Sequence record: AB841360.1
Direction: 5' to 3' (one strand)
Origin: a phage
DNA: 890 bases
Shown: positions 1 to 890 of the stretch, piece after piece
Layout: each line of letters begins with the position of its first letter
Numbering within the stretch: the first letter of the stretch is position 1
Notes under the pieces: generated by a model
What the model was told of the DNA's origin: nothing
What the model saw: the letters and a program-made list of their open reading frames with translations, nothing else
Database searches by the model: none
Translations under genes and position numbers: made by a program

Positions 1-794
1 AGCTTCCCGCCTACCGTTACAGTTCTGCCATCTGCTAACTGAACTGTACGCTCATTATTCCCAACCGCCCCTTTCATTGATGCTCTCTGCATCGATAAAT
101 CCTGACCGCGCATCGTGATGTTCTGGCCTCGTGCTGTTAGCGCCTCGCCAGCCTGATTGCTGCGGATTGTCTCTGCCAGTCTGCCTCGGTCAATCTCACG
201 ACCAACGATTCTGTCTTGTGCCTGAAAATATTGTTCTGGACCAAGTGCAGCCATTCCAAGGTGATCAACAAACTCTGTGAAACCTTGTGGATTTTGCTGA
301 TACATTTTCGCCACATCCAGAGGGTCTACTCCGGCACGAGTAAGCTCAGATGAGTTGTTCTGCAACCATGACATCATGGCTTCTGGAGATGAAGCTGCGA
401 GTCTGGCACTTGCTGCCAGTGTACCGACAGTGGAACGCTGGTCTTCATCGACAAATTTCATGCCGTTTCTTACAGCGTCAAACTGCTCAGGATACTGTGA
501 TGCCAGCTTTCGCATTGCATCGCGGTCACCAGATGTATATGCATCAGCATAAGCCTGCTGAAACTCTTGCTGCCGCTTCTGCTGATCCATCTGCTTATAC
601 ATATCCATGACAGATGAAATGCCCTGCAAAGCCTGCAAGCCAACGTTATTACGTCCTGAGCGCTCCATTTCGTTGTTCTGGCGAATATAGGCCAACGCCT
701 CACTTACATCACTTGCCTTTGGCGCATTTGAGTTTTGCCCACCGATACCAGCAAGAAAACCGCCTGAGTTGATTCCTTGTTGCCAAGTAGCCAT
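1..794 (-). CDS. Hypothetical Gln/Ala/Met-rich protein, N-terminal 264 aa; 3' end lies beyond the window start. Possibly a phage structural or internal virion protein, but function is unassigned.
   Basis: Hand translation of the minus strand from ATG (complement of 792..794) gives 264 sense codons with no stop down to position 3. None of the plus-strand triplets at positions 3,6,...,792 is tta, cta or tca. A stop-free run this long is expected by chance at roughly 10^-5 to 10^-6 in random ~50% GC sequence. Translation begins MATWQQGINSGGFLAGIGGQNSNAPKASDVSEALAYIRQNNEMERSGRNNVGLQALQGISSVMDMYKQMDQQKRQQEFQQAYADAYTSGDRDAMRKLASQYPEQFDAVRNGMKFVDEDQRS... and ends in-window ...GQDLSMQRASMKGAVGNNERTVQLADGRTVTVGGK. 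The start is preceded by an SD-like AGGTG with a 5-nt spacer. By hand count there are about 28 Gln and no Cys. Product assignment is inference only; I recognise no catalytic motif. Confidence 0.85.
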   Translation of the reverse strand, partial: MATWQQGINSGGFLAGIGGQNSNAPKASDVSEALAYIRQNNEMERSGRNNVGLQALQGISSVMDMYKQMDQQKRQQEFQQAYADAYTSGDRDAMRKLASQYPEQFDAVRNGMKFVDEDQRSTVGTLAASARLAASSPEAMMSWLQNNSSELTRAGVDPLDVAKMYQQNPQGFTEFVDHLGMAALGPEQYFQAQDRIVGREIDRGRLAETIRSNQAGEALTARGQNITMRGQDLSMQRASMKGAVGNNERTVQLADGRTVTVGGK

Positions 795-798
795 ATTC

Positions 799-805
799 CC
801 ACCTT
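799..805 (-). promoter_or_regulatory. Shine-Dalgarno-like ribosome-binding site for the downstream minus-strand gene, overlapping the upstream stop codon (translational coupling).
   Basis: Minus-strand sequence reads 5'-TTT TAA GGTGGG AAT ATG-3'. AGGTG (complement of 800..804) matches the AGGUG portion of the canonical SD and sits 5 nt before the ATG at 794..792. The upstream TAA (806..804) overlaps the SD. Confidence 0.65.
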
Positions 806-890
806 AAAACAATGATCCAAGACCACCGATAATACCGCCACCAATAGCGCCAACAGCTGTACCTATTCCAGGCACCACAGAACCAATCAT
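804..890 (-). CDS. C-terminal end of an upstream ORF (or a complete 28-aa peptide if the ATG at 890..888 is the true start) with a glycine-zipper hydrophobic tail; 5' extent unknown.
   Basis: Minus-strand translation from 890 gives MIGSVVPGIGTAVGAIGGGIIGGLGSLF followed by TAA (complement of 804..806). Gly at residues 10, 14, 18 and 22 forms a GxxxGxxxGxxxG zipper in an otherwise hydrophobic stretch. The frame is open to the right window edge, so the ATG at 890..888 may be an internal Met of a longer protein. Confidence 0.55.
   Translation of the reverse strand: MIGSVVPGIGTAVGAIGGGIIGGLGSLF

Follow-up and report, generated by a model that had tools for sequence, protein, structure and literature searches.

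A glycine-rich tail at the edge of a P22-like phage sequence reads as the C-terminus of a gp7-type DNA-ejection protein that probably enters the host outer membrane

What does a short, glycine-rich reading frame encode when it runs off the end of a phage sequence, and does the spacing of its glycines mean anything? In the window considered here, by which is meant the whole stretch of 890 nucleotides of phage DNA that was analysed (sequence record AB841360.1), translation of the minus strand from the right edge gives MIGSVVPGIGTAVGAIGGGIIGGLGSLF, followed by a TAA stop at 806..804. A mechanical list of open reading frames enters this as a 28-amino-acid ORF (804..890); the frame is open at the right edge, and the ATG at 890..888 is the very end of the window. 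Ten of the 28 residues are glycine (positions 3, 8, 10, 14, 17, 18, 19, 22, 23 and 25), none is charged, and the mean Kyte-Doolittle hydropathy is +1.54. An earlier note, made from the letters of this stretch, had drawn attention to a perfect GxxxGxxxGxxxG array (Gly 10, 14, 18 and 22) in a hydrophobic background, which is indeed present, and had set several readings side by side: the end of an upstream ORF, possibly the hydrophobic segment of a phage ejection protein, a holin-like or channel-forming peptide, or a glycine-zipper micropeptide that starts at the terminal ATG.

The relatives of this peptide are informative as to its identity. A 224-residue 'DNA ejection protein' of phage Louie and a 226-residue protein of an E. 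coli ST3 prophage both terminate in this same 28-mer, and nine 90%-cluster representatives of 198-231 residues carry the identical sequence, always at the terminus and never as a separate product. The Louie protein matches the Pfam family PF25688 (P22_gp7) with 302.5 bits (E=3.1e-90, against a cut-off of 28 bits), its residues 18-224 lying on profile positions 25-230 of 230, such that the match reaches the last position of the profile, as does that of the ST3 protein; full-length relatives also match phrog_598, 'DNA ejection', at 1.5e-88. A search of 5.8 billion proteins returned 1127 homologues of gp7, and window 640-890 is present in 382 E. coli genomes, where the product is annotated as an ejection or DNA transfer protein. 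Likewise, the megablast matches of the window lie in P22-like phages and prophages, and the features that they cover carry annotations such as DNA transfer, DNA ejection or injection protein. The source would be an Enterobacteriaceae phage or prophage of P22-like (Lederbergvirus) type, and we would put at roughly 0.93 the probability that the 28-mer constitutes the last 28 residues of a P22 gp7-type DNA-ejection protein of about 224 residues, the C-terminus of which inserts into the host outer membrane. Two of the options raised in the earlier note, that the peptide ends an upstream ORF and that it is the hydrophobic segment of an ejection protein, are borne out by these matches. Exact patterns drawn from window 799-890, 610-677 and 841-890 had no match in genome, metagenome and viral contig collections, and a pattern from window 331-390 was found in 37 IMG/VR contigs, none of which (0/37) has the gp7 tail type of the window. 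Full-length gp7 had no match among PDB sequences at E<=1, and NCBIfam holds no family for the gp7 or the gp20 protein.

The notion of an independently translated 28-residue glycine-zipper micropeptide, whether from a gene of its own or from an internal start in gp7, derives its appeal from the ATG at the window's end and from the entry in the mechanical ORF list, and in relatives a G-rich run, AGGGG, lies just upstream of this codon. The part of gp7 that extends beyond position 890 is taken from relatives that are 98-100% identical over window 651-890. In all those with the identical tail the frame, which the earlier note had proposed to follow rightward, remains open for about 196 further codons upstream of the methionine, with continuous Pfam gp7 homology throughout, and in Louie the methionine is residue 197 of 224. 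Among 44 distinct C-terminal tails, obtained from the 120 best homologues, this position is occupied by Ala in 24, Met in 8, Gly in 7 and Thr in 2, so that it does not represent a conserved start; replacement by Ala, Gly or Thr, in 33 of the 44, occurs in tails that are otherwise conserved. Functional Shine-Dalgarno sequences are spaced about 5-10 nt from the start codon. The upstream sequence in relatives reads ...GCA TCA GGG GCG ATG, in which AGGGG, part of Ser-Gly codons, is the only purine-rich run and ends 2 nt before the ATG, too close for the ribosome-binding site that the earlier note had suggested looking for. Moreover, the 28-mer alone has no match in Pfam or PHROGs (it is too short to score against PF25688). 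A stand-alone gene, with a start that is not conserved, no usable ribosome-binding site and some 196 open codons ahead of it, was rejected; this micropeptide is very improbable, and the apparent 28-residue ORF is an artefact of the window edge.

A second frame on the minus strand, a 49-residue ORF at window 704-853, spans the gp7/gp20 junction. Among the gp7 homologues a single database protein has the ending LLGNKESTQAVFLLVSVGKTQMRQRQVM, read in this alternative frame, and the probable cause is a frameshift or a wrong gene call in a public assembly, with no real product.

The gene order needle (26)-14-7-20-16-tailspike is found in Louie, ST3, P22, Sf6, APSE-1, phiSG1 and ST64T, and it bears on the suggestion that the segment might be holin-like, or part of a pore-forming toxin, and act at the inner membrane for lysis. 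A hydrophobic peptide with GxxxG motifs would suit that role, as would the weak match to the Pfam family Gly-zipper_OmpA (PF13436), but the latter is sub-threshold (16.7 bits against a cut-off of 27 bits, E=0.0065) and membership of that family was rejected. A holin would be expected to be a small lysis-cassette protein with a charged tail; here the parent is a virion component of 224 residues with an uncharged tail and no charged C-terminal domain, encoded between genes 14 and 20 in the virion ejection module 14-7-20-16 and not in a lysis cassette. A lysis function is therefore scarcely credible, and the holin-like and channel-forming peptides named in the earlier note can be dropped on account of the same gene context.

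What follows in the window also supports the gp7 reading (Table 1). The adjoining downstream gene, with its ATG 9 nt after the gp7 stop, is a gp20 homologue: its portion in the window matches PF16928 (Inj_translocase) with 249.5 bits (E=3.8e-74) and phrog_917 at 1.1e-127, and is 49% identical to P22 gp20 in a gapless alignment over residues 1-234. Residues V51, L53, L56, I59, V62, M65 and Y66 align with V51, L53, L56, L59, V62, I65 and Y66 of P22. The Shine-Dalgarno sequence of gp20 overlaps the TAA of gp7, and the same layout, with a gap of 9-10 nt between stop and ATG, is seen in Louie, ST3, P22 and Sf6; this overlap fits translational coupling of the two pore partners gp7 and gp20. On the plus strand, antisense to the gp7 tail, window 804-833 contains a sigma-70-like pair (TTAAAA, an 18-nt spacer and GATAAT; 9 of 12 matches). 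The promoter scan of the window gave two promoter-like sites against a shuffle expectation of 1.0 +/- 1.2, and since this count lies within expectation the pair is treated as chance. A terminator scan of the window found none.

Table 1. Features of the gp7 tail and its gp20 neighbour in the 890-nt window, with positions of distant gp7-like loci
Feature	Position	Strand	Basis
Final 28 codons of a DNA-ejection ('DNA transfer') protein of the P22 gp7 family	807..890	-	translation; identical C-termini in Louie and ST3
M1-V6, corresponding to P22 gp7 G203-I208, C-terminal end of arm 1	873..890	-	alignment
P7-G-I-G-T11, putative turn at the hairpin apex, with Gly8 and Gly10	858..872	-	homology
A12-F28, arm 2 / terminal helix, with G14xxxG18xxxG22xxG25 and the ...GSLF end	807..857	-	gapless alignment to P22 P213-F229
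Glycine codons of arm 2: G14, G18, G22, G25	851..849, 839..837, 827..825, 818..816	-	
TAA stop of gp7	804..806	-	sequence
Shine-Dalgarno AAGGTGGG for gp20	798..805	-	read from sequence
gp20-family ejection protein, first 264 codons, ATG at 794..792, open at left edge	3..794	-	PF16928 match
gp20 residues 51-66 (VGLQALQGISSVMDMY), outer-membrane helix packing against the gp7 tail in P22	597..644	-	alignment to P22 gp20
Distant gp7-like loci of Lumpael, IME279, Aeromonas phage 4_4512 and Vibrio phage 1.039.O	L008:1144-1803, L010:1144-1803, L009:1153-1770, L011:1126-1752		

The structural context of such a tail has been described for P22 in a 2026 preprint, not peer-reviewed, whose model of the outer-membrane region started from AlphaFold3 predictions and was refined at about 4 A (bioRxiv 10.64898/2026.09.03.749273). 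According to this in situ cryo-EM work, the C-terminus of P22 gp7 is V-shaped with both arms in the outer membrane, where 24 gp7 helices, contributed by 12 copies, and 12 gp20 helices make up a 36-helix pore, and upon release of the gp26 needle twelve gp7* molecules assemble on the gp10 hub as an extracellular helical channel. The membrane-embedded residues are I191, L204, I208, I218, I222, L224, L225 and F229 in gp7 and V51, L53, L56, L59, V62, I65 and Y66 in gp20; residues 1-47 of gp20 line the lumen of the gp7 tube, and the outer-membrane part of gp7 depends on gp20 for its stability (bioRxiv 10.64898/2026.09.03.749273). The word 'glycine' has no occurrence in that preprint.

In an alignment of twelve gp7 homologues the tail of the window pairs with that of P22 (...GLAKLI-GSSTPWGAAIGGGIGLLGSLF) at 14 identities in 28 positions. 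At the end of arm 1, I2 and V6 take the positions of the membrane-embedded L204 and I208. In arm 2, the counterparts of G14, G18, G22 and G25 are P22 G215, G219, G223 and G226. Residues P7-T11 fall opposite the P22 turn G209-S-S-T212, with a one-residue indel at the Pro, and we infer a turn at residues 7-11. The two tails are of different subtypes, ...MIGSVVPGIGTAVGAIGGGIIGGLGSLF here and ...GLAKLIGSSTPWGAAIGGGIGLLGSLF in P22, and are 50% identical over the 28 residues. The turn is one residue longer here (Pro-Gly-Ile-Gly-Thr versus Gly-Ser-Ser-Thr-Pro-Trp), the additional glycine G10 lengthens the array by one period, and the bulky residues of arm 2 are shifted, being I16, I20 and I21 here and I218, I222 and L224 in P22. 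Nevertheless, P22 gp7 (mature gp7*), Sf6 gp11 and HK620/CUS-3 gp7 belong to the same family as the protein of the window, as judged by its full-length relative with the identical tail. The protein shares with P22-type gp7 the gene position in 14-7-20-16 and the size class of 216-231 residues; its tail shares the uncharged, Gly-rich C-terminus, the conserved GxxxGxxxGxxG motif and the ...GSLF end, and the window includes the gp20 partner with its conserved hydrophobic helix 51-66.

Taken over from P22, a hairpin in the outer membrane would be the disposition expected of the window's tail. By this analogy, gp7 of about 224 residues would have its first 20 residues cut off by the host protease OpdA, as in P22, the only phage for which this N-terminal propeptide cleavage is documented (PMC8402733). 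The virion would contain about 12 copies, which would leave through the tail once the gp26 needle is released and assemble on the gp10 tail hub as a dodecameric helical tube. The Gly-rich, uncharged C-terminal portion of about 45 residues would then adopt a V-shaped helix-turn-helix dipping into the host outer membrane, where 24 gp7 helices could assemble with 12 helices of gp20 into a 36-helix pore for the passage of DNA; the gp20 residues concerned, 51-66, are encoded in the window as well. Of this hairpin the window would cover the end of arm 1, the turn and the whole of arm 2.

Regardless of the homology to P22, one has to ask how much weight the glycine array can bear. A run of at least four glycines at a spacing of four arises in 13% of 200,000 shuffles of the 28-mer (p about 0.13), and the four-Gly array by itself is therefore not significant given the composition. 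The signal above chance resides in the conservation of the glycine positions: counted from the C-terminus, Gly is found at -15, -11 and -7 (G14, G18 and G22) in 35-37 of the 44 distinct tails and at -4 (G25) in 31, the tails that have no Gly at those positions are mostly one residue longer, and the terminal S-L-F is nearly fixed. Gly10 (-19), which falls in the putative turn, is Gly in 27 of the 44. Thus, of the array to which the earlier note had given weight, G14, G18 and G22 stand by virtue of their conservation, whereas the four-membered version does not, with Gly10 variable and in the turn and chance reaching the array so readily. Judged by the aligned tails, the best description of the pattern is that the terminal helix of gp7 carries a conserved GxxxGxxxGxxG motif. 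Across 804-890 the window, Louie and ST3 differ at four nucleotides, all of them synonymous third-position changes.

Transmembrane glycine zippers follow the motif (G/A/S)xxxGxxxG or GxxxGxxx(G/S/T), which Kim et al. are said to have described in PNAS in 2005. This pattern is found in arm 2 as G14xxxG18xxxG22, conserved and in a helix whose membrane location comes from the P22 homologue. On a helical wheel of arm 2 the face of bulky hydrophobic residues (Ile, Leu, Val and Phe) and the face formed by G14, G18, G22 and G25 lie 143 degrees apart, the corresponding angle in P22 being 132 degrees. The conserved Gly face would presumably act as a glycine zipper through which helices pack closely, and the Ile/Leu/Phe face would be directed to lipid. 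There are no charged residues after K193, and hydropathy along the protein peaks in the tail; the highest Kyte-Doolittle value over 19 residues is 1.51, slightly short of the classical transmembrane threshold of 1.6. An AlphaFold2 monomer model of the protein with the identical tail, made with a 38-sequence alignment, has a mean pLDDT of 39 and about 25 in the tail and is uninformative; low values of this kind are expected for a protein that folds only as a dodecamer in a membrane.

Could the tail instead be flexible and compositionally biased, with no specific role in membrane insertion or packing, the GxxxG pattern being a by-product of 36% glycine? The frequency of the array among shuffles and the very low AlphaFold2 confidence would both agree with this, as would the distant gp7-like proteins that are Gly-rich at their ends with no strict zipper and the compositional matches of the tail to PHROG families of tape-measure and endolysin proteins. 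Yet G14, G18, G22, G25 and the terminal SLF are conserved where neighbouring positions vary, charges are wholly absent, the hydrophobic and glycine faces are opposed, and in P22 the cryo-EM density places both arms in the outer membrane, packed on gp20 (bioRxiv 10.64898/2026.09.03.749273). A tail shaped by composition alone is therefore very unlikely, and a membrane-inserted gp7 terminus remains the preferred reading.

The zipper itself has a narrower distribution than the protein. In a wider sample of 420 family representatives at E<=0.001, GxxxGxxxG occurs within the last 30 residues in 27 of 82 full-length-like representatives, many of which end in ...GG(L/G)F, and distant gp7-like proteins often have a Gly-rich end of low charge with a terminal aromatic residue. 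Arm 2 is apparently absent from the proteins of Salmonella phage Lumpael, Klebsiella phage IME279, Aeromonas phage 4_4512 and Vibrio phage 1.039.O, which close with a short Gly-rich stretch whose last residue is hydrophobic or aromatic, for example FGGMFGGMI or GLPGLGKLF. Because only a part of the 82 has GxxxGxxxG and some distant members seem to be without arm 2, the zipper characterizes the Lederbergvirus/APSE/Sodalis-type subfamily, and gp7-like proteins do not all share it.

Several other known systems invite comparison. T7 gp14 and the 'gp14-like (OM)' proteins have the same role, in that each is a small internal virion protein (about 200 residues) that is expelled first and places alpha-helices into the outer membrane, and like gp7 it starts the trans-envelope DNA conduit. 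However, no sequence similarity between gp14 and gp7 was detected in the search of PDB sequences, and the gp14-like (OM) ejection proteins of podoviruses have 4-5 predicted transmembrane helices (review PMC8954989), as opposed to the one C-terminal hairpin of gp7. With regard to glycine zippers as a class, the gp7 tail does not belong to the Gly-zipper families of Pfam (PF13436, PF13488, PF13441), and its helix would be part of a phage-built outer-membrane pore and not of a resident membrane protein. A literature search that combined 'glycine zipper' with phage ejection gave no relevant paper. Tape-measure proteins have Gly-rich hydrophobic segments of similar composition and with a similar presumed role of membrane insertion in DNA delivery, and phrog_23574 (tape measure) matches gp7 residues 167-221 at E=3e-6, but this match is confined to the low-complexity tail with no homology elsewhere, and phage morphotype and protein architecture differ. 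Residues 126-222 of Louie gp7, the tail of which corresponds to window 807-890, also draw the endolysin family phrog_10341 and several PHROG families of unknown function. Such matches look like the result of a shared low-complexity, membrane-active composition and not of homology.

The window also records a history of recombination. A mosaic joint lies at about window 650-665 (gp20 codons ~44-48): window 1-650 is 98-100% identical to an IMG/VR locus (L049), while window 651-890 is 94-100% identical to ST3 (L002) and Louie (L001) and only 33-78% to L049. To the right of the joint the window is of the Louie/ST3 type, which takes in the gp7 tail together with the channel-lining N-terminal segment of gp20. 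The joint itself falls where gp20 residues 1-47, the lining of the gp7 channel in P22, give way to the outer-membrane helix of gp20. The comparison suggests that the gp7 tail and the gp20 N-terminus are co-inherited, and the interacting parts seem to travel together because in L049 the gp7 tail (…MPGWGTAIGAGVGLLGSLF) and the gp20 N-terminus are both of another kind. A bolder version, which we consider possible and somewhat doubtful, is that the Gly face of arm 2 (G14/G18/G22/G25) locks gp7 to the gp20 helix, and that the gp7 tail and gp20 residues 1-~47 form a co-adapted, co-inherited recombination module. A second, small mosaic patch is found at window 201-250 (gp20 residues ~182-198), which is only 66% identical to L049, Louie and ST3, with flanks 100% identical to L049. 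Window 1-209 has matches of about 97% in phages UPF_BP1, JEP4 and phiv205-1.

This returns us to what the tail signifies. The feature is already known, in that the structure and role of the P22 counterpart in the outer membrane are described in the 2026 preprint (10.64898/2026.09.03.749273), and its importance beyond correct annotation is slight: the segment would be the outer-membrane anchor of well-studied phage DNA-delivery proteins, and the 28-residue ORF, made by the edge of the window, should not be annotated as a micropeptide. The GxxxGxxxGxxG motif could help to choose positions for mutagenesis in the gp7-gp20 outer-membrane pore, and if the gp7 tail and gp20 residues 1-~47 do form a module, it would set which ejection proteins work together.
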